Origin: Thermodesulfobacteriota bacterium
GTDB taxonomy: Bacteria; Desulfobacterota; GWC2-55-46
NCBI GenBank assembly: GCA_030583865.1
Contig: CP129479.1
Location: forward strand, 196,744 to 260,743
Direction: 5' to 3'
Length of the DNA stretch: 64,000 nucleotides
Shown: piece after piece, positions 9,532-33,642 of the stretch
How positions within the stretch are numbered: position 1 is the stretch's first letter
Layout: each line of letters opens with the position of its first letter
Position numbers and translations under genes: made by a program
The notes under the pieces: model-generated
What the model was told of the DNA's origin: nothing
Database searches by the model: none
The model's input: the letters and a program-made list of their open reading frames with translations, nothing else

Positions 9532-10050
9532 AACGCGCTGCCGCGCTTTTTGGGCATGAGGCTCCCCTCCATCCTCCGGGCTCGGCTCTTATGTCGCTCG
9601 GCCTTTGCCCTCGCTCCTGCTGCCCCGCCTCGCCCGTCCCTCCTCCATCCCTATGTCCGCTCCGCCTTATGCCCGGGGTTGTTTTAAATGCAAAAACAAA
9701 AGTGCTGTGAGATTTTTTATCTTTAACAAACCCCGGAGGGTAAGGCGAGCGCTGCATAAAGGAGGAAGAGCGTGAACGGGCCGGGAAAGCAGAACTAGGC
9801 CCTTCCCCTTCGTTTCACTCGCTCAGGGTAAACTCCGCGACTTCAGGGGCCCGTTGGAGATTACCGGCATTCCGCCGGGAATCTCCAACGCAAGAGGAAG
9901 ATTTCCGTATTTACATCCGCTCGCTCGACCCAGAAAAAACTCCTGGGTCTCTGCTCTGGTTTTGTGTGTTCACGGGGTGGGGGAGGGGCTGGCAAGCGAG
10001 CCTTACCCCCGGACCGCGCGGAAGCGCGGAAAAGGTCTTTCGTTTCGCGT
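9532..10050 (-). repeat. Repeat family D, copy 1 (~520 bp, internally palindromic with an AT-rich centre; carries a nested ~110-bp mini-insertion)
   Basis: Reverse complement aligns with 33262..33642 along most of its length. Extra segment relative to copy 2 maps to ~9862..9972, with its own inverted-repeat ends (CGTTGGAGATT at 9862..9872 / AATCTCCAACG at 9890..9900). Confidence 0.8.
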
Positions 10051-10147
10051 GAAAAAAAATCGCATCGCGTCAAAACGGTCTAGAAGAAGGGAATCGGATT
10101 AAGAGCTGAATGGGAAGGGTTCGTTTCAGTCAAAAGCTGACGTGCTA

Positions 10148-11575
10148 TCAGCCCTGCGGCTCCGTAACGGTTACCGCTTCAAACGCCGCGAAGGGGCTCT
10201 CCAGCGACGCGCTGCGGTCTGCCCTGACCGGTATCATTATTACGGTGCCGGGCCTGAGCCTCTTCGGGTTTAGGTTTTCGTTAAGGTGCATTATGGGTTT
10301 TATCTCGGTCCCGTACCTGGCGGCTATCCTGCCGAGCGTGTCCCCGCGCTTTATCTTGTGCTGCACGAAAGAAACCCTTTTCGCGGGCGGGACCTTCTTC
10401 ATGTTCTCTACGAACATCTCCGCCGTGCCCGCAGGTATTTTAACCTGGTAGCCGGGATAATCGGGCGGGGTGAACCAGCGCAGGAGCTCGGGGTTGAGCT
10501 TCCTTATCTCCTCGACGGTCGTGCCGGCGGCGGCGGCGATTACACGGAGGTCGGTCGCCTGCTTAACCGGGACCTTGTCATAACGGAGCCCTTCGTTGAA
10601 GACGACGGGGCTGAAGCCGTATTGCTCCGGGTCCTTCGCTATGGTGAGGGCGGCAAGGTACTTGGGCACGTATTCCCGCGTCTCCCGGTGGAGGACCTTT
10701 TTCTTGCTGGCGAGCTCCCAGAAGTCCTCGGTGCCCTGCTTCTTTATGGCCCTGGCGACCCGTCCTTCCCCGGCGTTATAGCCCGCAGCCGCAAGGTACC
10801 ACGAGCCGAACATCCCGTATAGGTTCTTAAGGTAGCTGGCGGCAGCGTACGTGGCCTTTTCGGGGTCCATCCTCTCGTCTATCCACCAGTCCACCCTGAG
10901 GCCGTACCTGACGGCCGTGCCTTTTATGAACTGCCACATGCCTACGGCGTTCGCGTGGGACCTTACGGTCGGGTTTAGCCCGCTTTCTATCAAGGCTATG
11001 TAGGAAAGGTCCTCGGGAAGGCCGTTTTCGCGCAGTATCGCCTGGAGCATGTGCATGTAGTCCGCGCTCCTAACGAGCCATTTTTCAAAGTGTTTCCGCC
11101 CGTTAGTCTGGAAGTACCTTATGAAGGACTCGACGTTCTTGTTGACAACGATGGGGATTTCCGGAAGCCCGGGCACCTCTTCGGCTTCCACCGCCTCCTC
11201 TATCGAGGCCTCGGCCACGAGGAACGGAGGCAGGGCATGGCCGGAGGCAACCTGGCCTGCCGCCTGGCATGAGGGCGCGTTCACCGCCGGCGCGGAACCG
11301 GTGTAGTCAAAGTGCATTACGCCGGTATCAGAGTTGGCATCGCATAGGTACAGCGCGTAAGCGTACCTTAAAGTGGTGATGTTCTGGAAGGGGACTTGTC
11401 CGGCGGGCGCGCCGAGCCCTTCTGTCGAGAGCCGCCCGGAGCTATCCTGGACCAGGGAGGCAAGCTGCGACCCTCCCTCCGCCACGGCCGGCCAGCCCGC
11501 GTCCGTGGTCGAAGCCCACGAGGGGGCGGCGAAGAGCGTCAACGAGAGCGCGGCGGCAAGGAGAGTCGGTTTCAT
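10148..11575 (-). CDS. mltD: Membrane-bound lytic murein transglycosylase (SLT domain + C-terminal LysM repeats)
   Basis: Signal peptide MKPTLLAAALSLTLFAAPSWA. SLT motif ESGLNP...GMWQF. LysM motifs at the C-terminus. Confidence 0.7.
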   Translation of the reverse strand: MKPTLLAAALSLTLFAAPSWASTTDAGWPAVAEGGSQLASLVQDSSGRLSTEGLGAPAGQVPFQNITTLRYAYALYLCDANSDTGVMHFDYTGSAPAVNAPSCQAAGQVASGHALPPFLVAEASIEEAVEAEEVPGLPEIPIVVNKNVESFIRYFQTNGRKHFEKWLVRSADYMHMLQAILRENGLPEDLSYIALIESGLNPTVRSHANAVGMWQFIKGTAVRYGLRVDWWIDERMDPEKATYAAASYLKNLYGMFGSWYLAAAGYNAGEGRVARAIKKQGTEDFWELASKKKVLHRETREYVPKYLAALTIAKDPEQYGFSPVVFNEGLRYDKVPVKQATDLRVIAAAAGTTVEEIRKLNPELLRWFTPPDYPGYQVKIPAGTAEMFVENMKKVPPAKRVSFVQHKIKRGDTLGRIAARYGTEIKPIMHLNENLNPKRLRPGTVIMIPVRADRSASLESPFAAFEAVTVTEPQG

Positions 11576-11583
11576 CGTCACCT

Positions 11584-13089
11584 TCAGCGGTTGTACGGGG
11601 ACCCGGCGCTCTGTCCGGGGATGCCGCCCGCAAGCTCTATCTGCCGGAACTTCTCCTTGACGTCCTCGGCTGTCTTTTTTGCCGCAAGCTCTATCTTTTT
11701 GCCTGCGCTGGTGAGGGCCCTGGTGTAATCGACGAAGTACTGGTTGTTCTTTATCCACTTCTTGGTAAGGCTGTGTCCGTAGGTCTTTATGCCGACATTG
11801 AAGAGGTCGAAGCGCGCGGCCCTCCTCGCTATCTGCCAGAGCGAATAGAATTCCTTGGTCGCCCTCATGGTCTCGGTCTGGAGCTCGTAGTAGCTCATGA
11901 GCTTGGGCTCGAAGACCACGTGGTGGGCGTCGTAGAGGCTCCAGTCCTTGCTTATTATGCGCCCCTCGCTTTCAAGGTCCCTGTAGCACTTGGTGCCCGG
12001 CAGCGGCGTAAGGATAAGGAACTGGACCGATTCGAGGTCGTTCTTCTTCGCGAACTTCACGGTCTCGGCTATGGTGTCGGTCGTGTCCTGGTCGGAGCCG
12101 AAGACGAACATGCCGTGTATCCTTATGCCGTTCTTATGGAGCGTCCTTATGCAGTTCGTTATGTCCTCGACCGACTGCTGCTTGTTATAGAGCTTTAGGG
12201 TCTGCGGGTTTATGGACTCGAGCCCTATGTAGACGGTGTGGCATTTCGATTTCCGCATGAGATCCAGGAGCTCCTGGTCTTTCGCGATCTCCACCCTGAC
12301 CTGGGCCGTCCAGTTGGGCGTCAGGCGCTTTTCTATCATCGTGGAGAGGAGTTCCTTGGTCCTCTTCTTGTGGGCGCAGAAGTTGTCGTCGTAGAAAAAG
12401 ACCCAGTTCCCACCGTACCTCCTGTGGTTCTCGAGCTCTTCTATGACCCTTTCCTTGCTCCTGAACCTGTACTTCTGGCCGAACATGCCGGTGACCGAGC
12501 AGAAGCTGCAGTCATAGGGGCACCCCCGCGAAGTCATTATAGGCGCTATGGTGAGCTTCCTTATGTTCTCGGTCTCCATGCCGCTTATGAGGCTGAAGTC
12601 CGGGGCAGGGAGCGTGTCCAGGTCCTTGCAGAACGGGGCGGTGGAGTTGTGCTTTATGGCGCCGTCCTTGTAATACGAGAGCCCGGCTATCTTGTCGAGC
12701 CCTTTTCCGGTCTCTAACGCCTTTATGAAATCCACGATGACGTCGTCGGCCTCGCCGCGGAGCACGTAATCCGCGTACTGGAGGGCCTCCTCAGGGAGGT
12801 AGGTTACATGGGGGCCGCCCATTGCAACGGGTATTCCGGCCTTCCTCACGAGCTTGGCTATCTCGTAAGACCTGCTGGATGTCGAGGTTATGGTGGAAAT
12901 ACAGACCAGGTCGGCGCTCAGGACGTCCTTGAGATCGAGTTCTCCCACGGACTCCACATAGCTTTTCACCTCATAGCCGCTCTGCCTGAGCCTTGTGCCC
13001 AGAAGCACCGTGCCGAGCCGCGGAAGGGGCATTCTCGTAAAGATATGAAAATCAGGGGGGTTAGGCTCGATGAAGACGATCTTTCGCAT
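11584..13089 (-). CDS. B12-binding-domain radical SAM protein (function unknown)
   Basis: N-terminal cobalamin-binding fold followed by a radical SAM CxxxCxxC motif (SRGCPYDCSFCS). Long C-terminal extension. Its stop lies 9 nt before the mltD start. Confidence 0.8.
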   Translation of the reverse strand: MRKIVFIEPNPPDFHIFTRMPLPRLGTVLLGTRLRQSGYEVKSYVESVGELDLKDVLSADLVCISTITSTSSRSYEIAKLVRKAGIPVAMGGPHVTYLPEEALQYADYVLRGEADDVIVDFIKALETGKGLDKIAGLSYYKDGAIKHNSTAPFCKDLDTLPAPDFSLISGMETENIRKLTIAPIMTSRGCPYDCSFCSVTGMFGQKYRFRSKERVIEELENHRRYGGNWVFFYDDNFCAHKKRTKELLSTMIEKRLTPNWTAQVRVEIAKDQELLDLMRKSKCHTVYIGLESINPQTLKLYNKQQSVEDITNCIRTLHKNGIRIHGMFVFGSDQDTTDTIAETVKFAKKNDLESVQFLILTPLPGTKCYRDLESEGRIISKDWSLYDAHHVVFEPKLMSYYELQTETMRATKEFYSLWQIARRAARFDLFNVGIKTYGHSLTKKWIKNNQYFVDYTRALTSAGKKIELAAKKTAEDVKEKFRQIELAGGIPGQSAGSPYNR

Positions 13090-13379
13090 TAGCAGTAGTC
13101 CTTTTCCACATGAATGCCATTCATCTTACCCGCGTACAACCGCACTGTCAAGGAAAATGCCTGCCCCGCTCTCCTCTGAAAAACGCCTGAATCACGGGTT
13201 TTTTCAGGAAAATCCAGCTCCTCCGGCCAGCTCTGCCGTCCCTTTCGGGAATGCATCATACGCTTGTTTCCGAAATGAATATGTGAGTTGAGGCACGGAT
13301 TCCAGATGAATATGGAAAATAATCCGGATGCCTTGTTTTTACATCGGAGTTTTCGGGGCTGACTTGAGCCGCACGGGCT

Positions 13380-16202: not shown

Positions 16203-16321
16203 GCGTATATAGCCGTCTTTGAGCTTGATTTAACTACTGATTATAGCTCATTAAATGGGAGCATGACCAGAAAAAAAGCCGGACAAAGGGGGGTGAGTCG
16301 CATGAAAATGGGTGTGCTCTT

Positions 16322-17122
16322 CTACATCCTTCGCGAGATACTTACGCCGAACCCGAGATCGGGGCTGCCTTTGGACCATCCTTTCAGGATGTATCCATAC
16401 AGGTCAAGCACAGGGGACAGCCTTTGTCTCACGAATACGGTCGTCTCCAGAGGAGAAGGGACCCCGGGCGAGGCGGCCTGGCGCCACTCCAATATCAGGC
16501 CAGCGGCCGATTCCCTTGCGTACGGGTAGGCGCCGCCCGCCCTCATGAAAATCGCGTTCTTCAAGGTGAAGGCATCGGGGCTCCCGAACGACTCATACCC
16601 GATGGCGCCGAAAAGGGATAAATCGTTCAGTGCCGTTAGAGCGTCGGCCTGCAATGAGTAATCTGTTTCGCCAGTGCCGAGGCCCTTTGACTCGTCAGCG
16701 GTCGGGAATTTGAAATTCATCGCGAGGCTCAAAAGTAGCGGCCGCTCCGGAAGGTACATCACATTGTAAGACGCCCCGGCCACTATGTCGCCCAGGCCGG
16801 AATTCTCCCGGCGCTCTCCGGGCCTTCTGCCCACTACAGGAATTGCGTTCACCCCCGCAGGCACCACGTTCCCGGGGCCGATTACCTGCCTGTACGGAAT
16901 GACGAGCTTCAATCTGAGCGGGCCTCTTTCGTACGAGGCGGAGACCGGCACCTGCACTATGTCGCTGGCCTCGCGCCCGCCGTAGTCGCCTACGCTCAGG
17001 TCAAAGCCGACGCCCAGCTTGATAATCCTGGGGGCTTCATCCGCCGCGCTCGAGGGCCGCGCCGTCATCGTAAGAAGAGACGCGAACACGAGAAGGCTGA
17101 TAATGACGATGGGTTTTTTCAC
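16322..17122 (-). CDS. Putative outer-membrane beta-barrel protein (MetA-pathway/transporter-like family), paralog 1
   Basis: Signal peptide present. Alternating beta-strand pattern. Shares about 50% identity with the adjacent ORF 17474..18295. Confidence 0.5.
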   Translation of the reverse strand: MKKPIVIISLLVFASLLTMTARPSSAADEAPRIIKLGVGFDLSVGDYGGREASDIVQVPVSASYERGPLRLKLVIPYRQVIGPGNVVPAGVNAIPVVGRRPGERRENSGLGDIVAGASYNVMYLPERPLLLSLAMNFKFPTADESKGLGTGETDYSLQADALTALNDLSLFGAIGYESFGSPDAFTLKNAIFMRAGGAYPYARESAAGLILEWRQAASPGVPSPLETTVFVRQRLSPVLDLYGYILKGWSKGSPDLGFGVSISRRM

Positions 17123-17342
17123 AAGCTGCCCGTTCCCGATCTCAAGATCTAATGCCAGTCAGTAAGCGTCCAGTCTTATCGTTTCTCGACGGTCCCGCAG
17201 ATGCTCCGGGCTTGTCTCGCGGCATCCGCAGGCCTTGGCTAAAGGGCTATTGACCAGCCCACATAGCCTTTATACCACAGACCGATTGCGATTTGGAGCT
17301 TAACAGTACGGGCTTTACCTGTTGAGATGACTCCACGGTCTG

Positions 17343-18295: not shown

Positions 18296-18301
18296 GCAGG
18301 T

Positions 18302-21728: not shown

Positions 21729-22748
21729 TCAAAAAGAGTACTGCAGCGCGAGTATCCAGAAAAGGTCGGTTGACTTGACTCCCTCTGAAGGTTCGCTGTC
21801 GTACTCCACTATATTCGAGAGCTTCATGGCCCAGTCCGCGCCCAGCGACGTAGTTATCGCGGCCTCGTTCCGCAGCTGGTAGTCGTCGGGCTGGTCGAGC
21901 CTGTTGTTCACCACCAGGCTGTCGCTGAACTCGAGATTGCCTGATAGCTTCCACCTGAGCGCTGCCGCGGCGCGGGAAGTGGCCCAGGAGTCGTCCGCGC
22001 CGAGGTAGAGGTCCTCTGAGAAAAAGGCCGCGCCGAGCTCAAGGCGGAGCGACCGGGCGTCGTCGTCCCACACCTGGTAGCCCGCGCCAGGGCCCACGAT
22101 GCTCCTGAGCTTTATGTCCCTGAACCTGTCGGAGAGCATCTCTACGCTCACGTATCCGTAAAGGCGGCCGGTGAAGAAATAATCGTATTTGAGCATCCCG
22201 TATACGTTCCGCGCCGACATGCTGCCGCCCTCCTCGGCGTAGTTATAGAGGAGCTTGAATGTGGCGCGGTCGATGTCCGACTTCTTGACCGCCTCCGCGC
22301 CTATGGAGGCGCTGGTCCTGTCCGTGTTGCCGGACTGCGAGTTCGCCCCGATGGAGACGTTGCCGGTCCACTTGACCTCTTTCGCGGGCGGGTTCAGAGA
22401 TTCTATCTTGTCCCAGCTTATCGCTACAGCGCCCCTGCCCTCGCCGGGCTCGACGACCACCTGGCCGGGTGTCGTCGTGGAAAGCCTCCCCCGGACCACC
22501 TCGCCACCGGATAGATGAATATCGACAGCCTCGTCGGTCGTAATCCTCGCGACCTTGTCGGTAGTGATGCTCACGGGCTTCGAGTATGTCGTAGAGACCG
22601 TCAGGACACCGTTCTCGATCCTCGTCACCTTCCCGGTGATGGTGTCCCCGTTTTCGAGGACGACTTCATCCGCGCCGGCGGGCGCGGAGAACGCGGCAAG
22701 AAAAAAAGCGCATGCCAGGCAGAGCATGTAGATACGGCGAGTGGCCAT
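21729..22748 (-). CDS. DUF481-family outer-membrane protein (YdiY-like)
   Basis: Signal peptide present. Beta-rich sequence with a C-terminal YSF. Confidence 0.6.
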   Translation of the reverse strand: MATRRIYMLCLACAFFLAAFSAPAGADEVVLENGDTITGKVTRIENGVLTVSTTYSKPVSITTDKVARITTDEAVDIHLSGGEVVRGRLSTTTPGQVVVEPGEGRGAVAISWDKIESLNPPAKEVKWTGNVSIGANSQSGNTDRTSASIGAEAVKKSDIDRATFKLLYNYAEEGGSMSARNVYGMLKYDYFFTGRLYGYVSVEMLSDRFRDIKLRSIVGPGAGYQVWDDDARSLRLELGAAFFSEDLYLGADDSWATSRAAAALRWKLSGNLEFSDSLVVNNRLDQPDDYQLRNEAAITTSLGADWAMKLSNIVEYDSEPSEGVKSTDLFWILALQYSF

Positions 22749-22802
22749 TTGTAACCCCCATTTTTTGTATTCTCGTTACTGGCGCGGCCCGACACCCGCG
22801 GG

Positions 22803-25691
22803 TCACTCCAGCTTGAACTCGACGCGGCTGTCCCTGACCCCCTCCTTTTTGCCGGCTTCGAGGTCCCCTGACCAGAGGATGAAGACCCGCGAAGGCTCGA
22901 CCTTGCCGGTACCCAGTATATAGTCCCTGACCGCGTTGGAGCGGCTTCCCGCAAGGCTTCTCAAATCGTCGCCGGTCGCCAGGGTATGTTCCCTTAAAAG
23001 CCTCTCAAGCTCGGGAGCCGGGAGCTTTTTCACCATGCCCAGGAAGTTCTTCTCCTTGTGGAATTCAGCCCTCTTGTAGGCGAGGAACAGATATTTCTCA
23101 AACTCGTCATTGCCGATTTCAACATCGTCGATGGAGCGGCCGCCGCCCCCTGCGGCGGCCTTGAGCTTTTCGGCCTTTAGCGCCCTCGTGAACTTCTCTT
23201 CGGCGACGGCCCTTGCGTCTTCTTCATAATCCGCGTACCCCTCGATTTCGAGCTTCAGGCCAGGCCGTTCGTAAAGCGCGGACACAAGCGCATCGAGCTT
23301 TTTGACGGAGTCCACGGTGAGCGTGCGGCTTCCAGCGGAGAACTCCACGTACCCGAGGTCTTCGCCTCCCCCGAATAGCCCTCCGATAAGCGCAAAGGGC
23401 GAGGTCACCGCCTTTTCCACGAGGTTGAAAATGACCTGCACAATGAGGGCGCCGACACTGAACTCCGGGTCGTCAAGTGAGCCGGAAAGGGGCAGGTCCA
23501 GGGTTATCTGCCCCTTCCTGTCCTTGAGGAGGCTTATTGCGAACGCGACCGGAAGCCCGGTCGCCTGCGGACTGTCCACTTTCTGCCCGAGTGTTATCTG
23601 GTCTATAAGGACCTCGTTTGCGGCCTTGAGCGCCCTTTTTTCGATACGGTAACCAAGGTCCAGGAAAATCTTCCCCTTTTCGACCACGTACCCGATGTGC
23701 CTGCCGGAATAGGGCGTGATTGAGCTTAGCTCATAGCCGTCCAGCTTGATGCGCATGTCGATGAAGAGGTCGTCCTTATTCGGGTTGATCTTACCCTCGG
23801 CCTCGAGGTGCGCGTACTTATCGACCTTGCCGGAAAGTGCCAGCTCCGCAATCCTGCTGCCGTCAAGGAAGAGCCCCCTCATATTGCCGTTAAGCCCCTC
23901 GATGCTCGTGGAAAACGCGGGCTCGACCTGCAGGTCGGTGAAATCCACTCTGCCGTTTCTGAGCGTGACAGAGTCAATCCTCATGTACGAGGGCCCGTCC
24001 GCTCCCGGCCCTGCCGCAGGGGCCGGTGCGTCCGCATTGCCGGCATGCATGGGCTTCATTATCGCGGCGACGTTCAGCCCTCCCTCGCGGCCTGTGACGA
24101 CTCTCGCGTGGAAATCCGAAAGCATGACTGACCTGGCAACGAAGCGGAAAGGGGCAAGGTCGAACTCGACGCCGTTCAGGGCAAGAGAGCCGAACCTCAT
24201 GAAAGGTTCGACGTTCAAGCCGTCGAGCGCTGAAAATCCGGAAAGGCCCCCGTTCCCCTTATAGGAGATGCGCATGCCCGAATGCCCGAGCCCGGCAAGA
24301 AGCTTACCCGAGGCAGAGGCCGCGCCCCTTGTGATTTTCATATCGAGAAAGCCGTCGATGTACGGCTCGAGCGGCCTTACATCCAGGGCCTCGGCTTTCA
24401 ACTCGAGCTCCGCCTCCAGCGGATTAACGGAGAGGCTCCCTTCGGCCAGCACGGCCTCCCCTGAAGGCGCCCTGTAATCGAGGCGCGCCGTTCCGGGCCT
24501 GCCCGGCAGGGTGGTAAAGCCGGTCAGAGAAAAATCTACAGGGTCGAATGCGAGGCGGACGGGCCTGCTTCCCGTCAAGTCAGTAAAGGAAAGACGCGCC
24601 CTGGAGACCTCTATGCTATCGACCTCAAGGCTGGACCCGGCGTCACCTTCGCGAGGTTCTCTTTCGGCAGAACCGGGGAAAAGCGAGAGGAAGTTTATGG
24701 CGCCGTCGGCTCTCCTTACGAGCGCGATGTCAGGCCGCGAGAGGGTAACGGAAGAGAGGCGCGCCTTTCCGGCGAAGATATCGACAGAGGCGATGTCGAT
24801 GTCCAGCTCGGGCGCCTTTGCGACCTCTCCGCCATGCTCGTCCCTCAGGTCGAGGTCCCTGAGCTTAAGCGCGCCCTTCAAGGCAAGCTCGGGAGACCTG
24901 TCCCTGTATTGTATGTAAGAGAGCCCGAGGTCCGCGAAAAGCGTCCCTGAAGGCATCCTCAACTTGAGCGGAACAGGGGAGTACGCGAGGTACTCGGGAA
25001 GGCTGAGCGCCTCAATGCTTATGGCGAGCGACGTCTCGAAAGAATCGGCAAAGGGCTTGCTCTCTCCCTTCAGGTCAAAAGGCGTCCCGTTCACCTTTGC
25101 CGAGAATGAAGGCTTTACGAATATTTCGACCTCGCTCGGTATGCTGGAGATGAACGGTATCTCGACGTTCATCTCCCTTACCGCGTGGGACTTGCCCTTT
25201 GGCAAGTCGATGAAATCCACGCTTCCACCGGTCACGCGGATGTTGTTGAGGGAGAACTTGAGAGGCTCCCCCGACGCCGCCTCCTTTTCATCGGGAGCAC
25301 CCTCGGGGATGAGGTCGGAGAAATTATAGCTCATGTCCATGTTATGGACGGCCCTCAGGTAAGGCTTGTCAAGGGCGAGTTCCTTCACGGTGATCCCGCC
25401 CTTCAGGAGCGACCTTGCCTGCAGGTTCACCCTGAGCTCGCCGAAGGACGCGAACACCTCCGCCTTGCCGGGCTCCATGACCCTGAAGCCGGAGAGCCTG
25501 AAGCTGAAGCTGTACGGATTGAAGCGGACCTCCTCAAGAGAGGTCTCGCGCCCGAGAAGCTCCGTAAGCTTCTTGGGCGCGAGGGATTGTATAAGATACG
25601 GGACGAGGAGGAACCCCAGAAGCGAATAGACCGCAAATGAGGCGAGAAGGGCCGCGAGGAGCTTATTGTACCAGTATTTATTCCATTTCAT
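22803..25691 (-). CDS. Large AsmA-like/DUF748 envelope protein
   Basis: 962 aa with an N-terminal TM anchor, long repetitive beta-rich body and a conserved C-terminal domain. Confidence 0.6.
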   Translation of the reverse strand: MKWNKYWYNKLLAALLASFAVYSLLGFLLVPYLIQSLAPKKLTELLGRETSLEEVRFNPYSFSFRLSGFRVMEPGKAEVFASFGELRVNLQARSLLKGGITVKELALDKPYLRAVHNMDMSYNFSDLIPEGAPDEKEAASGEPLKFSLNNIRVTGGSVDFIDLPKGKSHAVREMNVEIPFISSIPSEVEIFVKPSFSAKVNGTPFDLKGESKPFADSFETSLAISIEALSLPEYLAYSPVPLKLRMPSGTLFADLGLSYIQYRDRSPELALKGALKLRDLDLRDEHGGEVAKAPELDIDIASVDIFAGKARLSSVTLSRPDIALVRRADGAINFLSLFPGSAEREPREGDAGSSLEVDSIEVSRARLSFTDLTGSRPVRLAFDPVDFSLTGFTTLPGRPGTARLDYRAPSGEAVLAEGSLSVNPLEAELELKAEALDVRPLEPYIDGFLDMKITRGAASASGKLLAGLGHSGMRISYKGNGGLSGFSALDGLNVEPFMRFGSLALNGVEFDLAPFRFVARSVMLSDFHARVVTGREGGLNVAAIMKPMHAGNADAPAPAAGPGADGPSYMRIDSVTLRNGRVDFTDLQVEPAFSTSIEGLNGNMRGLFLDGSRIAELALSGKVDKYAHLEAEGKINPNKDDLFIDMRIKLDGYELSSITPYSGRHIGYVVEKGKIFLDLGYRIEKRALKAANEVLIDQITLGQKVDSPQATGLPVAFAISLLKDRKGQITLDLPLSGSLDDPEFSVGALIVQVIFNLVEKAVTSPFALIGGLFGGGEDLGYVEFSAGSRTLTVDSVKKLDALVSALYERPGLKLEIEGYADYEEDARAVAEEKFTRALKAEKLKAAAGGGGRSIDDVEIGNDEFEKYLFLAYKRAEFHKEKNFLGMVKKLPAPELERLLREHTLATGDDLRSLAGSRSNAVRDYILGTGKVEPSRVFILWSGDLEAGKKEGVRDSRVEFKLE

Positions 25692-25778
25692 AATGGCCCC
25701 TCGCGGGAGGCAACCGGGCAGCCGGGGCCGGCTTCAAGAGGAGAGAAGCAGGTCATGGGCGCGGCATCCGAGGCACAC

Positions 25779-26222
25779 TCAACCGATGCCCGAGGTGCAG
25801 TGGGGGCAGCGGGTGGCCTTCAAGGGCACGACTGAAAAGCAATACGAGCATTCCTTGGTCGCCGGAGGGGGCGGCGCCGGGGCTTCGATCCAGAGGCTCC
25901 TTACGCCCTTTATGAGGAGGAACATGGAAAAGGCGACGATCAGGAAGTTGACGACCGTGTTTATGAACGCCCCGTAGTTGAGCGTGACCGCGGCGGCCTT
26001 CTTGGCTTCCGCGAGCGTGGGATAGGGGCCGGCGAATGTCCCGCTCTTGAGCGTGATGAAGAGGTTGGAGAAATCATAGCCGACCAGAAGGCCCATCGGA
26101 GGCATGAGAATGTCTGCAACGAGGGAGTTGACGATGCCGCTGAACGCCACCCCGATGATGACGCCTACAGCCATGTCGATGACGTTCCCTCTTAAAGCGA
26201 ACGTCTTGAACTCCTTGAGCAT
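25779..26222 (-). CDS. mscL: Large-conductance mechanosensitive channel with C-terminal Cys4 zinc-ribbon-like tail
   Basis: MscL core motifs ([19 protein letters not shown]). Tail is CSYCFS-X11-CPHC. Confidence 0.85.
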
Positions 26223-26385
26223 TGTCTACCCGCCCCCGCTTCCCGGCAGCTTGAGATAAGTAAATGACTATGGGAATCTATCAGCTATCGCCCCTGGTGT
26301 CAAGCAGCGCTGGCTGGCGGGAAACGGGCCTTTCGGAAGGGCGGCTGGCTTTGATCGGCTGACTTAAAACGCGGGAGCGCAGAGT

Positions 26386-28101
26386 CTATCTTATATACGC
26401 CTCGGTCACATACCTTCTCATCATCCTGTGAGAGTTGAAGTAGTAGGCGACCTTGCCTATGGAGTTCTCCATCATCTTTATCCATATCCTGCGGTTGTCA
26501 TAAAAAGTCGGGATGACGTCCTTTTCGAGCTTCCTGTAGAGGTCGTCGGCGTCCGCCTCGTCGGTCGAGAGCGCAAGCGAGCTCTCAAGCGGCTGGGGGC
26601 CTATGGACCAGCCGGTATAGCCCTCGATGTGCCCCTCTATCCACCAGCCGTCAAGGATGCTGAAGTTCAAGACCCCGTTGTGGGCGGCCTTCATTCCGCT
26701 CGTGCCCGAGGCCTCCCTGGGCCGCATCGGGGTATTCAGCCATACGTCCACGCCCGAGATCATCTTCAGGGCGAGGTCCATGTCGTAGTTCCCGAGGTAC
26801 GCTATTTTGATATCGTCAGCGAGCTCGCGGGCGGTCTTTACGATGCGCTCTATATTCCTCTTGCCTTCGATGTCCCTGGGGTGGGCCTTACCGGCGTAGA
26901 TGACCTGAACCTTTTTCCTGCCGATCTTCCGGAGGCGCTCGACATCCCAGAGGAGCAGGTTCGACCTCTTGTAGGCAGTGGCCCGCCTGGCGAAGCCTAT
27001 GGTGAGGGTTTCATAGTCCATGCCGGCGCCGGTTTCGCCGTTCACGAAGTCTATGAGCCTCCTTTTCGCCTCCATGTGCGCGCCCCAGAGCTCTTCTTCG
27101 GGGATACGGGTTATCCTCACGAAAAGCTCGGGCTCGTTGGCCCAGCCGGGCAGGTACTTGTCGTAGAGGCGCGCGAAGGGCTCCGAGACCCAGGTGAAGG
27201 TATGCACGCCGTTTGTGATGGCCTGTATCTTGTAGCCGGGGAATAGGACCTTCGAGACCTCGCTGTGCTTCTTCGCGACCCCGTTCATGTACTGGCTCAG
27301 GTTCATGGCAAGGAGCGTCATATTCAGCTTGTTCGCGCCGCCAAGCTCCTTCAAGACGTCGAAAGGCACGTCCTCGCCGAGGACCTCCCGCACGAGGTCG
27401 TAAGAAAACTTGTCGTGCCCGGCCTCGACCGGGGTGTGCGTCGTGAATACGCAGAGGTTTTTGACGCGCTCTATGTCCCAGACCTCGCGTTCGTCCCAGA
27501 CCGCCTCTATGTCGCGCTTGTATCTCTGCAGTAGTTCGAGCGTAAGGAGCGCCGCGTGTCCTTCGTTCATGTGGTATTTCTTTATCCTGAATCCCAGGGC
27601 CCTGAGCATGAGCACTCCGCCCAGGCCGAGCACCACCTCCTGCTTGAGCCTGTAGCGGTCGTCGCCGCCGTAGAGGTGGTCGGTTATGGCCCTGTCCTCG
27701 GGGGTGTTCTCCGGGAGGTCGGTGTCGAGGAAGAAGATCGGCACATTCCACTTGGTGACCAGGCTCCGTATGGAATAGACCCAGGCCTGGACAGCGACCT
27801 CCCTCCCTTCTATCGTGACCCTTATCCGCTGGGGCAGCAGCTGCATGTGCTCTGCCGGGCTCCATTTCTCCGGGTGCTCTGTCTGCTTTCCGTCCTTGTC
27901 AAGCTCCTGCCTGAAGTACCCCTTCCGGTGTATGAGAGTGACCGCCACCATGGGAAGGTTGAGGTCTGCAGCCGATTTTATCGTGTCTCCGGCAAGCACC
28001 CCCAGGCCGCCGCTATAGGTGGGTATCTCGTTCCTGAAGCCCACCTCCATTGAGAAATAGGCTATCTTGGATTCGGCTGTAAGCTCTTCAAGCAATGACA
28101 T
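26386..28101 (-). CDS. Alpha-glucan (glycogen) phosphorylase family protein, GT35
   Basis: 571 aa with GT35 motifs (YFSMEVG, GGLGVLAGD, TNGVH). Confidence 0.8.
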   Translation of the reverse strand: MSLLEELTAESKIAYFSMEVGFRNEIPTYSGGLGVLAGDTIKSAADLNLPMVAVTLIHRKGYFRQELDKDGKQTEHPEKWSPAEHMQLLPQRIRVTIEGREVAVQAWVYSIRSLVTKWNVPIFFLDTDLPENTPEDRAITDHLYGGDDRYRLKQEVVLGLGGVLMLRALGFRIKKYHMNEGHAALLTLELLQRYKRDIEAVWDEREVWDIERVKNLCVFTTHTPVEAGHDKFSYDLVREVLGEDVPFDVLKELGGANKLNMTLLAMNLSQYMNGVAKKHSEVSKVLFPGYKIQAITNGVHTFTWVSEPFARLYDKYLPGWANEPELFVRITRIPEEELWGAHMEAKRRLIDFVNGETGAGMDYETLTIGFARRATAYKRSNLLLWDVERLRKIGRKKVQVIYAGKAHPRDIEGKRNIERIVKTARELADDIKIAYLGNYDMDLALKMISGVDVWLNTPMRPREASGTSGMKAAHNGVLNFSILDGWWIEGHIEGYTGWSIGPQPLESSLALSTDEADADDLYRKLEKDVIPTFYDNRRIWIKMMENSIGKVAYYFNSHRMMRRYVTEAYIR

Positions 28102-28302
28102 GGGTTCCCCTGAAAAGTTGGATTGTTAAAAACGAGCTTTCCCACCGCCGGGCCGGAGCAAGATATTTCCCTTATTAATTTTTTTATTCCGCCAGCCGAT
28201 ATATAAAAAGTTGTGTTTTATCAAATCCGTAGTCGACCGCAATTATACATCAGGACCTGCCCCGATTACAGCTTTTCCGGGCCTCGCTCGTCCTGTCCGC
28301 TC

Positions 28303-28330
28303 TTGAAGGAGAGCGGACTTGTGGTATAAT
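28303..28330 (+). promoter_or_regulatory. Sigma70-type promoter with extended -10 (TTGAAG-16 nt-TGgTATAAT)
   Basis: Called from the sequence by eye. Located about 20 nt upstream of the slt ATG at 28350, which has RBS GGAGGTG. Confidence 0.5.
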
Positions 28331-28349
28331 GCGGCGGTGGAGGTGCCCG

Positions 28350-30752
28350 ATGGCTTCGATTAAAAGGAGCCTTCATATACCGGCCCTGGTTTCCGCGCTT
28401 TCGCTCCAGCTCTTTTTTACCGGACCCGCTCACGCCTTTTTCGTAAAAACCAGCCAGGTAACGGCCCCCGAGGCCGCTCAATCCCTATTTCGCAAGGCCG
28501 GGCCTGAGCCGCTTTTCATGTTCGCGCTCAAGATGAAGGACGAGGGAAACAAGGCCGAGGCCAGGAGGTCCTTTGCGGAGGTCCGCAAGCTCTTCCCGGA
28601 TTCGGCATGGGCCCCGAGGGCGGCGTTTCTCCTGGCCCTTATTGCCCTGGAGGAGGGGGACCCCGGCGCGCTTGCCTATCTTGAAGAATCCGCAGGCCTT
28701 TCGGGCATCGACGATTACCGCCTCTTTTACAGGGCCAAGGCCCTTTCCGCGCAGGGCCTCCATGCGGAGGCTGCCGGCGCCTATGAATCCATTATACTAT
28801 CCTATCCGTCATCTTTGCTTGCCGAAAAGTCCCGGTATCTCGGCGCCGCGGCCCTTTTCGAGGGTGCTGCCTTCCAGAAATCCGCGGAAGCATTCGAGAA
28901 ATTCCTGAAAACGCACCCTGAAGGCCCCCTTTCCGCGGACGCGGCCCTCATGCTTTCCGATTCCTACATCAAATCCGGCGCGCCGGAAAAGGGTGTTGCA
29001 CGCCTTAAGGGGCTGGCGCTCGGGCAGCCTGCCGCCGCCTCCGGGCAAAAGGCCCATAAGAAGCTCGCCCAACTCGATTCAGAGGGGGTGAAGGGCGCAA
29101 AATTGACTCCTGAGGAAAGGTTCAGGAGGGCAGAGGGGCTCCTCAGGGCCGCCTCATTCGAGGCTGCCATCGGGGAGTATAAAAGTTTGAGCGGCTCGCC
29201 CGAATTCAAAGGCAAGGCGTCCGTCAAGACCGCGGTCGCGCTCGCAAGGCAGAAGAAGTACGGCCAGGCCGAAAAGCTCCTTAAAGAACATCTTTCAGCC
29301 GAGAAGCCGTCCCTTGAGGCGGAAGCGCTCTACTGGTACGCGCTGACTTCGATAAGGCAGGGAAAAGATGGCGGCGCCCTGGAGGCCCTTAAGAGGCTTT
29401 CAGTGAAATTCCCCAGAAGCGACGAGCGCGGAAGGGTTATGATGCTCCTCGCCCGCTTCAAGGAAGAAAAAGACCTTGAAGAGGCTGTGAAGCTTTATAA
29501 GACGGTAATCTCGGATTTCGCCGGCAGCCCCGTATCGGATGACGCGTTCTGGAACCTTGCATGGGGCGCGTACGCCTCCGGCAGTTATGAGGACGCCTAC
29601 GAAGGCTTCTCGCGATATCTCGCTGCGAAGCCCGGCGGCAGGGATACGACGAGGTCGCGCTACTGGAAGGCCAGGAGCGCTGAGAACCTCGGGAGGGGCG
29701 GGGAGGCGGCAGGCGGGTACGAGGAAGTTTGCGCCAAGGCCCCGGATACCTTCTATTGCCTCATGGCCGCATCGAGGGCAAGGGAGCTTGAAAAACGGAC
29801 TGGAGCGGTCCTGGCCGGGGCGAGGGCGATCCCGGCAAGCGCATTTAATCCAGGCACGCGGCCTTCTACCGATGGATTGCAAGGCGAAAGCGTTTTCGCG
29901 GGGGTTCCAGGGTACAGGGCTGCCGTGGAGCTTCTCGCTCTGGGCTTACGGGAGGAGGCCGCTGACGAGCTTGAGAGGATAGCGTCGCTTCATTCGGGGA
30001 AGCGGGCGGACCTTGCCGAGATCGCAATGCTCCTCTACGAGGCAGGGGACTACTACAGGGCCTTCAGGATATACAGGCTCCACCTCTCGGCGGATAGGGA
30101 TTTCAACCACCTCGGGTTCCCGCTCCGGATAGTCGAGTCCGTCAGGGAGAAATCCGGAGTTCCAGTTGACCCGTTCCTGGTGGCTGCCGTAGCGCGCGAG
30201 GAGAGCCATTTCAACCCCGGCGCGGTCTCGCCCGTTGGCGCGCTCGGGATGATGCAGATAATGCCCTCGACCGGAAAGGGCATAGCCGCCAGGCTCGGAG
30301 AAAGCTTCGCGGAGGGGAGCCTTTTCGAGCCGGCCACGAGCATCAGGTTCGGGTCCTGGTACCTCGGGCATCTCCTTGAGAGGTTCAACGGCGACCTGGC
30401 GCTCGCGATATCTGGCTATAACGCCGGTCCGAACGCGGCAGAGAGATGGGCGAGGAGCCTGCCATTCGAGCTCGACGAGTTCGTGGAATCCATTCCCTAT
30501 AACGAGACAAGGGCCTATTCGAAAAGGGTATTGAGGAGCTATGCCGAGTTCCTGAGGCTTGCAGGGGAGGACCCTGTCGAGCGGATAAGGAGGGTTGAGC
30601 CGTACGGCGGCAAGGCAAAAGACCCTGGCGAGGCCGACGCAAGCGGGGTAATGCCGGTTTACGCCTCTACAGGGAGCGGGCCGGGTCTTCGCCCTTTTTT
30701 CCCTTTGACCTTGCTTTCCGCACCTTTTCAGCGAGCGATTCCGCTTTTTTGA
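28350..30752 (+). CDS. slt: Soluble lytic murein transglycosylase (TPR superhelical domain + SLT catalytic domain)
   Basis: Signal peptide present. SLT motif REESHFNPGAVSPVGALGMMQIMP...YNAG. Confidence 0.8.
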   Translation: MASIKRSLHIPALVSALSLQLFFTGPAHAFFVKTSQVTAPEAAQSLFRKAGPEPLFMFALKMKDEGNKAEARRSFAEVRKLFPDSAWAPRAAFLLALIALEEGDPGALAYLEESAGLSGIDDYRLFYRAKALSAQGLHAEAAGAYESIILSYPSSLLAEKSRYLGAAALFEGAAFQKSAEAFEKFLKTHPEGPLSADAALMLSDSYIKSGAPEKGVARLKGLALGQPAAASGQKAHKKLAQLDSEGVKGAKLTPEERFRRAEGLLRAASFEAAIGEYKSLSGSPEFKGKASVKTAVALARQKKYGQAEKLLKEHLSAEKPSLEAEALYWYALTSIRQGKDGGALEALKRLSVKFPRSDERGRVMMLLARFKEEKDLEEAVKLYKTVISDFAGSPVSDDAFWNLAWGAYASGSYEDAYEGFSRYLAAKPGGRDTTRSRYWKARSAENLGRGGEAAGGYEEVCAKAPDTFYCLMAASRARELEKRTGAVLAGARAIPASAFNPGTRPSTDGLQGESVFAGVPGYRAAVELLALGLREEAADELERIASLHSGKRADLAEIAMLLYEAGDYYRAFRIYRLHLSADRDFNHLGFPLRIVESVREKSGVPVDPFLVAAVAREESHFNPGAVSPVGALGMMQIMPSTGKGIAARLGESFAEGSLFEPATSIRFGSWYLGHLLERFNGDLALAISGYNAGPNAAERWARSLPFELDEFVESIPYNETRAYSKRVLRSYAEFLRLAGEDPVERIRRVEPYGGKAKDPGEADASGVMPVYASTGSGPGLRPFFPLTLLSAPFQRAIPLF

Positions 30753-31731
30753 TAAGCTGCCTGTTCCCCGAGAGGTTGAAGAATTCGAGGGCCTTTTCCG
30801 GCTCGTTCTCCTTCATTGCGGCATACCCGAGCTCATCCGCCCTCTTCGCCACCTTCGCCACCGGCTCGCCCTCGCCGGCAAAGGAGTAGAATTCTATGGC
30901 GTCGTACAGGTCGTTTACGGAAGTCCTTTTGACGGCATCCTCGGCCCTGCGCGCCGCGCGCGAGTAGACCCGCGCCTTTCCTGGCTCCCCGATCAGGGCG
31001 GCCCATTTCAGGGCCGACTCGAGGATAGCCAGGGATTCCTCGCAGTCACTCGTCCCGGCATACGACCGTTCCTCCTTCAGCAGCAATGAATCCAGGCTCG
31101 AGGAGGCGGCCCCCCTGAGCCCGGCCAGATGGGCCGGGTCCACGGAGTAGCCCGGGAGATTCAGGCGCTCCCTCGACCTGAAGTGCCTGAAGGCCCTTTC
31201 GGCTGAATCAAGGTCGGCAGGGGCTGATTTCACGGACTTCATGACGAGCGAGTCGGATTCCCTGTAATTGTAAGTGGCCTCATACCAGTCGTACGCGCCG
31301 GCTGAGCGCTCGATCTCAACTCTCATTCCGCCGGAGGATGCCACGCAGAGCCCGGGCACGGCCGTCTCGTACGGGTTAGGCGAAATCAATATGTGCCTGG
31401 CCCATCTCCGGCAGTCCTCGTCAGGCACCCTGGCCAGTATGTTCTTCCCGGAAAAAAACCTGCCTTCCTTTTCGGCAGATGACCCCATCCTGGCGCCGAT
31501 GCGCTGAAGGCCTTTTCTGGCCTCGGCGCGTTTTCCGCAGAACGAGTCCGCTGCCCTGAAAAAAAGGAGCGCCTCCAGCGCGTGCCCGGCCTTTTCCGCA
31601 GCCAGGCCGTTTTCAAGATAGGAGTCGAGCTTCTCGACGTCAGCGTGGTTGCACATGGCGTCGCCGTAAGCGTGGCCCGAAAAGGTTAGGGCCGTGAAGA
31701 TGACGATCATAGACTTTGAAAGGATTCCCAT
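30667..31731 (-). CDS. Secreted hypothetical protein
   Basis: N-terminal signal-like segment and TPR-like helical composition. Its 3' end overlaps the slt 3' end by 86 bp in convergent orientation. Confidence 0.45.
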   Translation of the reverse strand: MGILSKSMIVIFTALTFSGHAYGDAMCNHADVEKLDSYLENGLAAEKAGHALEALLFFRAADSFCGKRAEARKGLQRIGARMGSSAEKEGRFFSGKNILARVPDEDCRRWARHILISPNPYETAVPGLCVASSGGMRVEIERSAGAYDWYEATYNYRESDSLVMKSVKSAPADLDSAERAFRHFRSRERLNLPGYSVDPAHLAGLRGAASSSLDSLLLKEERSYAGTSDCEESLAILESALKWAALIGEPGKARVYSRAARRAEDAVKRTSVNDLYDAIEFYSFAGEGEPVAKVAKRADELGYAAMKENEPEKALEFFNLSGNRQLIKKAESLAEKVRKARSKGKKGEDPARSL

Positions 31732-31934
31732 GCGCGAGTCAGCATTCGGGCGGCCACGGCAGAGGCTGCCCGCTCTCTTTTTCTGGATGATAATGAATAC
31801 AGGCCGGCGGCCGGATGCCCGCCTGTCATTTCGGTTTCAGGTTGGACTGGGACATGCTATCCTTAGCACGACCAGGGCCGTCTGTCAAGGCGTAACGCCC
31901 TGCCGTGGCGCGGCTTTGAGCCCCGGGAATTCCG

Positions 31935-33206
31935 GTGTACAATCAAGGTATGGACCCTTCGCCTGCGCTTATCTTCATAGTGGGACTGTATCTGGCCTCA
32001 ACGGGGGCCGGTCTTGTCCTCGAATTTCTGAACATCAGGAGGCTTAACGAGAGGTGGGGCGAGGTGCCGCCCGGCTTCGAGGGGCGCATCGACCGGGATT
32101 CCCTCGCGCTCTCAAGGGAATACACGGTCGAGAACGCAAGGCTCGCGATGGCAGAGAAGCTCGCCGGGTCTCTTGCCTCGGCCGTTTTCGTGCTATTCCT
32201 CCTCAAGCCCTATGACAGGTGGATAGATTCGCTGGGGGGCGGCTTCATAGCATCCGGGGCGGTCTTTTTCATGCTCCTTCTGCTTGCGGAGACCCTGCTG
32301 AGCGCGCCTTTTGCCTTCTGGCGCGTCTTCAGGATAGAGAGGAAGTTCGGGTTCAGCGCAATGACCCCGGGGCTATGGGCCGCCGACCTGGCCAAGTCCA
32401 TAGCCGTCTCGTCGGCGCTGGCCCTCCTCTTCATATGCGCCGCGCTCTGGATAGTCTCACTCAGCCCGGGGCTATGGTGGTTCTGGCTATGGCTCCTTTT
32501 CATCGGGTTTACGGTATTCATGATGTACGTTTCGCCGCACCTGATAGAGCCGCTTTTCAACAGGTTCGACGAGGTCGACGACCCGGGCCTCAGGGACGGC
32601 ATAAGGGAGGTCCTTAAAAAAGCCGGCATACGGGCCGGCAAGGTCCTCAAGGTGGACGCATCGAGGCGCACCTCGCATACGAACGCCTATTTCACCGGGA
32701 TAGGGAGCGTAAAGAGGATAGTGCTCTACGATACGCTTTTGGAAAAGCTCGGGAAGGAGGAGATAATCTCGGTCCTCGCCCACGAGGCCGGACACTGGAA
32801 GGGGCGCCATCTCCTCAAGGGCCTGACAGCGACGGCGCTCATCGGACTCGCGGCGCTACATGTCTCCTACAGGGTGATTGGAAGCGGACTTCTCGAGAGG
32901 GCCTTCGGATTCGAGGGCGCCTCGCTTTACGCGCAAATCGTGCTCCTGGGCTTACTCGCATCCATAGCCGCCTTCTTTTTTATTCCCGTTTTCACGTGGC
33001 TCTCCAGGCGGCGAGAGATGGGGGCTGACCGGTTCGCAGCCGAGATTAGCGGCGACCCGTCCTCGATGGCATCGGCGCTAATTAAGCTATCCAGGGACAA
33101 CCTCTCGAACCTGCACCCGCACCCGCTTTATGCCGCGTTCCACTACTCGCATCCGCCAGTGGCCGAACGTGTAAGGGAATTGCGGAAGACTGGAGAGGGA
33201 ACCTGA
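31935..33206 (+). CDS. M48-family zinc metalloprotease (Ste24/CAAX-protease-like), integral membrane
   Basis: Multiple TM segments. HExxH motif (HEAGHW) with a downstream Glu. Confidence 0.8.
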   Translation: MYNQGMDPSPALIFIVGLYLASTGAGLVLEFLNIRRLNERWGEVPPGFEGRIDRDSLALSREYTVENARLAMAEKLAGSLASAVFVLFLLKPYDRWIDSLGGGFIASGAVFFMLLLLAETLLSAPFAFWRVFRIERKFGFSAMTPGLWAADLAKSIAVSSALALLFICAALWIVSLSPGLWWFWLWLLFIGFTVFMMYVSPHLIEPLFNRFDEVDDPGLRDGIREVLKKAGIRAGKVLKVDASRRTSHTNAYFTGIGSVKRIVLYDTLLEKLGKEEIISVLAHEAGHWKGRHLLKGLTATALIGLAALHVSYRVIGSGLLERAFGFEGASLYAQIVLLGLLASIAAFFFIPVFTWLSRRREMGADRFAAEISGDPSSMASALIKLSRDNLSNLHPHPLYAAFHYSHPPVAERVRELRKTGEGT

Positions 33207-33261
33207 GCCTCATAGTAATGGGAGCGAAAGGCCCTAAAGCAGGCGGCTTTCGGCATGAGCA

Positions 33262-33642
33262 AAAAACTTTTTCCGCGCTGCCGCGCGGTTTTCGAGGGCA
33301 AGGCTCGCTTGCTAACCCCCTCCCCCACCCCGTGAACGGACCCCTGAAGTCGCTTCGCTCCTGGCTTCCCCGGCCCGTTCACGCTCCGCCTCCCTTATGC
33401 AGCGCTCGCCTTACCCTCCGGGGTTTGTTTCAAGACAAAAAAGGACTTTTACAGCACTTTTGTTTTTGCATTTAAAACAACCCAGGGCATAAGGCGGAGC
33501 GAACATAGGGTTGGAGGAGGGGCGGGCGAGGCGGGGCAGCAGGAGCGAGGCCAAAGGCCGAGCGACTTAAGGGCCGAGCCCGGAGGATGGAGGCGGAAGG
33601 GAGCGGAGCCTTATGCCCAAAAAGAGCGCGGCAGCGCGTGAA
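33262..33642 (+). repeat. Repeat family D, copy 2 (~380 bp, internally palindromic with an AT-rich centre)
   Basis: Inverse of copy 1 (9532..10050). Terminal inverted repeats TTTTTCCGCGCTGCCGCGCGG / CGCGGCAGCGCG. Confidence 0.8.

Follow-up and report, generated by a model that had tools for sequence, protein, structure and literature searches.

The two copies of Family D

The stretch of DNA considered here (the window) comprises 64 kb of a Thermodesulfobacteriota bacterium (assembly GCA_030583865.1, contig CP129479.1, positions 196,744 to 260,743), whose genome will be referred to as W. It contains two copies, c1 and c2, of an internally palindromic element, Family D, which as a type of bacterial repeat is rather commonplace, yet unusually well conserved and prone to flipping and collapse. 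The window is otherwise ordinary chromosomal DNA, with housekeeping domains in the 48 open reading frames (ORFs) scanned; its MoeA (412 aa) and SLT/LysM protein are identical to WKZ33018.1 and WKZ33019.1, respectively. Copy c1 (9520-10042, plus strand, 523 bp) is located between an mltD-like gene (10148-11575, minus strand) and moeA (7869-9107, minus strand), and c2 (33252-33654, minus strand, 403 bp) between the convergent genes of an M48 peptidase (31947-33206, plus strand) and otsB (33699-34484, minus strand). The genes which an earlier note, made from the sequence alone, had placed between the copies are correct (SLT+LysM, UvrA, pyruvate kinase, MscL and TPR-SLT).

That note had described two inverted copies of one internally palindromic element, and repeat search, alignment and folding all agree with this, the limits having been refined to those given above. 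The repeat search of the window yielded three inverted pairs, 9566-9708/33451-33593 (143 nt, 95%), 9725-9790/33364-33429 (66 nt, 94%) and 9974-10020/33284-33330 (47 nt, 74%), which are collinear and which pairwise alignment joins into a single element with indels. Moreover, core motifs of 28-29 nt are confined to c1 and c2 within the window, with 0 expected in shuffles.

The element consists of two GC-rich arms of ~170 nt, imperfect inverted copies of each other, around an AT-rich centre of ~50 nt. Terminal inverted repeats (TIRs) of ~30 nt are found in all copies, as (G)AAAAGACCTTTT-AACGCGCTGCCGCGC versus the reverse complement of GCGCGGMAGCGCGG-AAAAGGTCTTTT, each terminus showing, from the outside inward, a GC hairpin and a short T-run. 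In the orientation of c1, the outer TIR (G)AAAAGACCTTTT is followed by the hairpin CGCG-CTGC-CGCG with T4-5, the pyrimidine-rich left arm, the centre (GGGTTGTTTTAAATGCAAAAACAAAAGTGCTGT...AACAAACCCC), the purine-rich right arm, the hairpin CCGCGC-GGMA-GCGCGG and the outer TIR AAAAGGTCTTTTT(GCTCAKGCC). Copy c1 is made up of a left TIR (9520-9551, with the small hairpin CGCG-CTGC-CGCG at 9534-9546, then TTTTT), a left arm (9552-9675), the AT-rich centre or apical loop region (9676-9740), a right arm (9741-10013) and a right TIR (10014-10042, with the hairpin CCGCGC-GGAA-GCGCGG at 10014-10029). Copy c2, on the minus strand, has its left TIR at 33623-33654 (hairpin at 33626-33638, then CTCTTTTT as read from otsB), its centre at 33414-33483 and its right TIR at 33252-33288 (hairpin CCGCGC-GGCA-GCGCGG at 33273-33288, which, as read from the M48 gene on the plus strand, is a hairpin plus TTTT). 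The terminal inverted repeats and AT-rich centre reported earlier are thereby borne out: the terminal hairpin motif CGCGCTGCCGCGC, with one mismatch at most, matches the four termini only in the window (0.49 expected), and at 2 mismatches there are 9 matches versus 6.8 expected, which means no enrichment elsewhere.

The excess length of c1 over c2 corresponds to two internal insertions, both of which split the right arm. The nested insertion already noticed in c1 is insB (9853-9967, ~115 nt, with two hairpins of its own); a second one, insA (9795-9836, 42 nt), had been overlooked and is otherwise present only, in a shorter form, in the c1 copy of the related genome H5_GWC (hereafter H5). The possibility that insB is an independent repeat was ruled out, as it is found only within Family D copies.

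As had been claimed, there is no convincing ORF, none being conserved across the copies. No Rfam family matched the window at gathering score, and a permissive search (E up to 10) returned only sub-threshold look-alikes of microRNA-precursor hairpins. Scans for sigma-70 promoter and terminator consensus gave no match inside c1 or c2; by eye, the termini are weaker terminator-like forms, with stems of 4-6 bp and T4-5. For the centre, a sigma-54 promoter and an IHF site were also weighed by eye and rejected, the spacing or the consensus being unfitting. Finally, no transposase, integrase or recombinase domain was detected in the 48 scanned ORFs of the 64-kb window.

Occurrence in related genomes

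The genomes compared differ in the identity of their MoeA to that of W: 93% in H5 (JABTVA01), which comes from a partial-nitritation/anammox reactor (PMC7648391), and in JAHDWX01, 92.7% in 'Desulfobacterota UBA5799' / JAIOIE01, 90.8% in DIDN01 (DIDN, the metagenome-assembled genome (MAG) GCA_002418185.1), 88% in a lineage found only in Logan assemblies (L014) and 79% in LVEI03. Among 185,579 species-representative genomes, the 22-nt centre occurs in H5 only, at 3 loci, besides three chance matches in unrelated AT-rich genomes (L001, L003 and L005), and BLAST added a fourth, diverged H5 copy. Family D loci thus number 2 in the window and at least 4 on three H5 contigs; all are intergenic and most lie directly downstream of a gene.

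Viral contigs contained no Family D match, and plasmid and phage collections a single 26-nt match due to chance. A scan of JGI metagenomes with a first pattern gave no match in a collection which evidently does not include the JGI contig carrying Family D (L024); a second pattern gave 34 matches, all of them by chance, in GC-rich coding DNA. Family D is restricted to a few related uncultured Thermodesulfobacteriota (UBA5799-like).

Folding of the element

The folding check suggested in the earlier note shows each copy as one long hairpin (z from -5 to -8). As RNA, c2 folds into a continuous hairpin of ~180 bp, with -213.6 kcal/mol on one strand and -206 kcal/mol on the other (z -8.1 and -7.4, respectively), and c1 reaches -237.5 and -236.2 kcal/mol (z -5.9 and -5.2); for c2, the use of DNA parameters results in -116.8 kcal/mol (z -8.75). 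Neither the fold energies nor the G-U counts show any strand preference.

When the hairpin of W c2 was mapped onto the alignment of seven copies (142 stem pairs), 89% of the cells were paired, versus 46-50% with the partners slid by 1-3 columns. Among 67 variable pairs, there was 1 compensatory double change, together with 18 wobble-only pairs and 49 with broken pairs. Only one pair is clearly compensated, with A:T in place of G:C in 3 sequences; it belongs to the 6-bp right-terminal hairpin, which would fit the recognition of a small local hairpin. Variable columns make up 33% of the paired and 52% of the unpaired ones (Fisher p = 0.002, the reference structure having come from one of the compared sequences), which may be taken as weak evidence of some structural constraint. 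Since compensatory change is almost nil and there is no strand bias, Family D is best read as a slowly decaying DNA palindrome by descent, and not as an RNA whose pairs are individually maintained.

The c1 locus

The spacer between mltD and moeA differs widely among the relatives. It measures ~1040 nt in W and 794 nt in H5 and JAHDWX, in both cases with a full element, inverted in the latter with respect to W; 272 nt in DIDN, with a ~70-nt remnant bearing a terminus-like hairpin; 230 nt in UBA5799, with no element; and 163 nt in LVEI03, where a canonical terminator is found instead. In L014 the upstream gene is another one, and a solo terminus-like hairpin (GACTTTTCCGCGTTGCTGCGCATTTTCG) precedes the conserved promoter-like region of moeA, so that c1 is full in W and H5, reduced to remnants in DIDN and L014, and missing from UBA5799 and LVEI03.

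The genes on either side are collinear in W and H5 (91-93%) and the element is inverted between the two genomes, including its termini (79-89%), with lineage-specific DNA on both sides between it and the conserved flanks. It was tested whether this DNA is an inverted version of that on the other side, which is not so. The W junction on the mltD side, including insB, was recovered at 99.7-100% identity in five independent short-read Logan assemblies from other samples, and the H5 state in two MAGs and one Logan contig, so that each lineage shows one orientation across independent assemblies (6 for W, 3-4 for H5). The presence of insA in the c1 copies alone argues for a single ancestral insertion, which would then have flipped, and the differing junctions argue for independent insertions or re-insertion; both histories are put forward as candidates.

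H5 has a specific 185-nt insert between mltD and its c1 copy (L008:9252-9436), with internal hairpins (…GTCATTCCGAGGGAGCGAAACGACC…), which is not present in W or in any other fetched locus. A promoter-like sequence of moeA, TTTACA-17-TATGTT (9465-9437, minus strand), is conserved and lies ~25 nt from the start codon in H5 and DIDN; in W, ~290 nt of repeats stand between it and the ATG (9108-9465, minus strand), and in UBA5799 ~100 nt.

The c2 locus

W, H5 (L006) and a JGI contig resembling DIDN (L024) all carry the full c2 element, in one and the same orientation. It is absent as such from two Logan assemblies whose flanks match W at 98.6% over 11.2 kb and at 98.3% over 7.5 kb, which reveals a segment that is polymorphic within the species: 33188-33624, 437 nt in W versus 90 nt in the W-like strains (98.5% flanks). 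The 90-nt replacement consists of a spacer Y, unrelated to the spacer X of W, and of a mini-palindrome in which the two termini meet head to head (GGCATGAGAGCAGAAGGCCTTTTAACGC|TGCCGTAAAGCGCGGCAGCGCGTAAAAAGCTC). At the same place, UBA5799 shows spacer Y and, of the left terminus, no more than the initial ~45 nt.

Two origins were considered and set aside. Spacer Y does not derive from the element or from spacer X, to neither of which it has significant similarity, and the acquisition of c2 by W through a recombination tract from a divergent donor was ruled out, the flank divergence between W and the mini-palindrome strain being a uniform 1-2% up to the breakpoints.

Long palindromes are prone to collapse by deletion, and the full-element haplotype is read as the older one, with the mini and solo forms as its probable collapse products, because the C-terminus of the X-type peptidase (RKMGEG) resembles that of distant homologues (RKMGG). 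A parallel is offered by REP singlets, which are regarded as remnants of REPINs (PMC3116915). The difference between the X and Y spacers, which goes along with the loss of the element, has no explanation in the collapse reading.

The M48 peptidase ends differently in the two haplotypes, over its last 5-7 codons (…RKTGEGT*, 33188-33206, versus …RKIRDSLE*, L027:11239-11260), so the polymorphic segment reaches into coding sequence. On the other side, c2 adjoins a trehalose cluster (34429-37890: otsB, otsA, a TreT-like GT1 and DUF5752), which is conserved in all relatives.

Exchange between copies and the conservation puzzle

The identities among copies are star-like, in that all of them are 86.5-91% identical to one another, whatever the locus or genome, except for the H5 c1 copy (81-84%). 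Variant blocks in the left and right arms of the c2 copy of H5 match another H5 copy (H5_L002) and not the W orthologue, which indicates that sequence is exchanged between copies within a genome. Furthermore, insB is restricted to W c1 and the non-orthologous H5_L002, where its internal position is identical, which, together with insA in both c1 copies, results in a mosaic distribution. The copies are remodelled at the DNA level by exchange, internal insertion, collapse to remnants of 45-90 nt with one terminus or both retained, and inversion of a whole copy, as is typical for dispersed repeats and long palindromes.

The rate at which they diverge is less easily understood. Between W and H5, the c2 element is 90.1% identical, with 80-84% at the four-fold degenerate sites of the flanking genes and 93-96% at codon positions 1+2; between W and the DIDN-like contig, the values are 90.9%, 54-65% and 83-94%, respectively. 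Thus, c2 divergence does not scale with that of the host. It is possible that the sequence is constrained and that conversion between paralogues inflates the W-H5 distance; alternatively, homogenisation or re-insertion of the family may have followed the split of the lineages. No feature other than this anomaly could lift Family D above an ordinary repeat.

Comparison with known systems

REPINs are REP doublets (REP, repetitive extragenic palindromic) that form hairpins and are mobilised by RAYT transposases (Bertels & Rainey 2011, PMC3116915). Family D resembles them in its two short GC-rich palindromic units, inverted at the ends, which fold with the spacer into one long hairpin of single-stranded DNA or RNA, with an alternative 'clover' fold having two small terminal hairpins (PMC3116915). 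Other shared traits are the extragenic location, solo units as relics of former doublets, asymmetric deletion products in which a few terminal bases survive, and an orthologous position that is held over long times; nor is a target-site duplication visible, within limits fuzzy by a few nt. However, Family D, at ~400 bp, is 4-5 times longer (the GI REPIN has ~71 bp between two invariant 16-mers), and its ~330-nt spacer is itself a diverged palindrome. Moreover, only a handful of copies exist (in H5, 3 exact matches to the centre motif and 1 diverged copy), whereas REPINs, as short units of about 100 bp, number tens to hundreds; compensatory stem changes, common in REPINs, are nearly absent; and the ORFs of the 64-kb window include no RAYT (Y1/HUH transposase) gene, which in REPIN systems is single-copy and has the repeats on its flanks.

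The bacterial miniature inverted-repeat transposable elements (MITEs) taken for comparison were Correia/CREE of Neisseria, Nezha of Anabaena/Nostoc and Chunjie of Geobacter uraniireducens (Delihas 2011, PMC3184786). Like these, Family D is non-autonomous, non-coding and intergenic, carries TIRs, falls in a size range that extends up to ~400 bp, folds into a very stable long stem-loop and varies in its occupancy of orthologous sites in close relatives. It has the TIRs, the size (403-523 bp, for an upper limit of ~400-500 bp), the lack of a transposase gene and the dispersed, if few, copies of a MITE. On the other hand, it shows no detectable direct-repeat target duplication; no insertion sequence (IS) with matching TIRs was found in the 48 window ORFs or in the plasmid and phage collections; the palindrome extends over its whole GC-rich length and not the ends only; and the unfilled sites keep remnants.

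The ERIC/IRU elements of enterobacteria, reportedly described by Hulton in 1991, Sharples and Lloyd in 1990 and Wilson and Sharp in 2006, are likewise imperfect palindromes in transcribed intergenic DNA, of low to moderate copy number and variable occupancy at orthologous loci, with longer variants arising by insertion at fixed internal positions, as with insA and insB, and with conservation above that expected of non-coding DNA. They differ in being ~127 bp long, in belonging to another phylum, and in having no sequence similarity and no subterminal GC hairpins. The foldback (FB) transposons of eukaryotes share inverted repeats over nearly the whole element, a short unique centre and a tendency to inversion and deletion, but they are much larger, with tandem sub-repeats in the arms, so that this is an analogy only. 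Invertons, finally, are segments bounded by inverted repeats and found in both orientations, as c1 is; unlike them, Family D has no site-specific recombinase nearby, a fixed orientation per lineage, differing junction DNA and no promoter consensus.

Nature of the element

Because its features match the published definitions of MITEs (PMC3184786) and REPINs (PMC3116915), Family D is probably, though by no means certainly, a non-coding DNA repeat of the MITE/REPIN kind, dispersed but restricted to its lineage, which is assigned to no named family. Its spread would have depended on a trans-acting enzyme, either an IS transposase acting on the TIRs or a RAYT-type enzyme acting on the terminal hairpins. 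Its present effect would be exerted in cis, where a very stable hairpin at transcript 3' ends could lead to termination, insulation or 3'-end protection. Such functions have been described for REP, ERIC and Correia elements, and from its position and shape Family D may plausibly act in cis at gene 3' ends, as a terminator or insulator.

Several observations weigh against this assignment. No target-site duplication is seen at any of the 7 copies for any plausible boundary, the limits being uncertain to within a few nt; the 48 window ORFs scanned encode no parent IS, no transposase and no RAYT; and the copy number is low. The sites devoid of the element hold remnants, and at c2 also a different spacer; because they are not clean empty sites, true transposition stands as a candidate only. 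In addition, the identity of c2 is well above that of the four-fold sites of the flanking genes, where a purely selfish, decaying repeat predicts otherwise, and variation is lower in paired than in unpaired columns (33% versus 52%, p = 0.002).

These last two points could be accounted for if Family D were an exapted module, kept by purifying selection as a bidirectional terminator or insulator, or as a protector of mRNA 3' ends, with the repeat family as a relic of its spread. The location of c2 between convergent genes agrees with it, as do the left terminus (hairpin and T-run), which faces the 3' end of the upstream gene at 4 of 5 loci, the inward structure of both termini (GC hairpin plus T4-5), the canonical terminator occupying the c1 site in the distant LVEI03 and a conservation that is on a par with codon positions 1+2. 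We nevertheless consider it unlikely: neither copy contains a consensus terminator, the stems being of only 4-6 bp and c1 of W having no T-run towards mltD; at both loci, there are close relatives that lack the element; compensatory change is nearly nil; and an equal divergence of ~10% for W-H5 and W-DIDN is unlike steady purifying selection.

A second alternative is a hairpin-targeting cassette, the palindromic core of which would re-insert, in either orientation, into small palindromic docking sites, the mini and solo forms being the targets and the invasion being later than the split of the lineages. All copies are about equidistant (88-91%), orthologous or not, while the synonymous divergence of the hosts varies greatly with the lineage pair; no flanking tract was imported; c1 has the opposite orientation and different junction DNA in W and H5; sites lacking the core keep terminus-like hairpins at exactly the same place; and the termini have locus-specific signatures (TATTCAC at c2 versus TTTAAC elsewhere). 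However, the same ~30-nt termini are found on all dispersed copies and so move together with the element, the rest of the window shows no enrichment of the terminus motif, and insA in both oppositely oriented c1 copies points to one ancestral insertion. Collapse of palindromes by deletion is established and explains the remnants more simply, deletion junctions inside element sequence being partly seen in them, and we know of no enzyme for such a cassette, which also counts against it; in all, it is rather improbable. The same holds for the wider idea of a sequence-constrained palindromic cassette which, in one orientation or the other, repeatedly reoccupies small docking hairpins located downstream of genes and has spread among related lineages after their divergence, for which only a small chance is seen. 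It would account for an identity of ~90% despite near-saturated synonymous divergence of the hosts, for the opposite orientations at c1 and for the hairpins at unoccupied sites and, if true, would represent an undescribed type of hairpin-targeting non-autonomous mobile element or a selected portable bidirectional terminator.

A family of genes for a structured non-coding RNA with a long hairpin, for instance a double-stranded RNA or RNase III substrate acting in trans, is very improbable. The great stability of the fold (z from -5 to -8), the high sequence conservation and a left half of the loop that is nearly invariant in 6 of 7 copies speak for it, but Rfam gave no match, no consensus promoter or terminator lies inside, both strands fold equally well with unbiased G-U pairs, only 1 of 67 variable pairs is compensatory, the orientation relative to neighbouring genes varies, and insertions of 42 and 115 nt, or even loss, are tolerated.

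The earlier note had proposed that the copies could mediate inversion of the 23-kb segment between them. Being mutually inverted and sharing 143 nt at 95%, they should be long and similar enough for RecA-dependent recombination and could be a substrate for it. However, the claim finds no support, since every relative compared is collinear across the copies: H5 and JAHDWX keep the order mltD, element, moeA; H5 and the DIDN-like contig keep M48, element, otsB; and a W-like strain (98.5%) is collinear with the window from 21954 to 41172. The changes seen instead are an element inverted in place at c1, between two species, and the 90-nt segment with a mini-remnant at c2, in a near-identical strain. 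A recombination switch, be it a phase-variable invertible element or a reversible 23-kb inversion driven by c1 and c2, is thus most improbable; related genomes do show both orientations of c1, but each lineage has a single one (6 W and 3-4 H5 assemblies), the junction DNA is not the same in the two states, the scanned window ORFs contain no recombinase domain, and c2 keeps its orientation in three lineages. Finally, an assembly or chimera artefact, which the earlier note had named as a possible refutation, can practically be discarded: palindromes and repeats often confuse assemblies, and several short-read contigs stop inside the element, but identical sequences and junctions recur in independent assemblies, MAGs and samples, including the c1 junction in five of the assemblies and orthologous copies in other MAGs.

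A repeat of the MITE/REPIN kind, as favoured here, matters in more than one way. Full, flipped, mini-palindromic, solo-terminus and empty states, which are rarely caught together, form a natural series within one data set and show the ways in which a bacterial chromosome remodels its long palindromes. In addition, a well-delimited repeat family is added for the poorly known, uncultured UBA5799-like clade of Thermodesulfobacteriota, and if the conservation puzzle turned out to reflect function or site-specific re-insertion, Family D would serve well as a model of portable terminators or of mobility targeted to hairpins.

Neighbouring repeats and rearrangement

Together with Family D, other repeat families of this genome explain breaks in metagenome contigs and structural variation at strain level. 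A second family of hairpin repeats, of ~140 nt each and with inverted repeats of its own, has five copies in the 64 kb (9122-9264, 46192-46341, 49488-49632, 56802-56947 and 61554-61711) and others elsewhere (L002:41-188, 952-1103 and 6344-6477; L016:~3905-3990). All its copies adjoin gene starts or ends, it is shared with H5 and UBA5799, and short-read contigs break within it (L019 and L020 start at window position 9213).

In the L014 lineage (L014:4600-5345, versus window 9109-9478 and 56361-56802), a rhodanese gene (window 56361-56866) abuts the upstream region of moeA. Because the two are joined directly, the 47 kb from ~9.1 to 56.4 kb of the window must lie elsewhere or be absent in this lineage. 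Both breakpoints fall together with direct copies of the ~140-nt repeat (9122 and 56802), and the junction has a solo Family-D-like terminus.

A third intergenic family, of ~150 nt with internal inverted repeats, is found at 261-406, 7693-7855, 52125-52267 and 61770-61869 (families D2/D3/D5/D7, I6). Lastly, a pair of 82-nt direct repeats (88%) is located at 5531-5612 and 9286-9367, the second copy being in the repeat-laden moeA leader.

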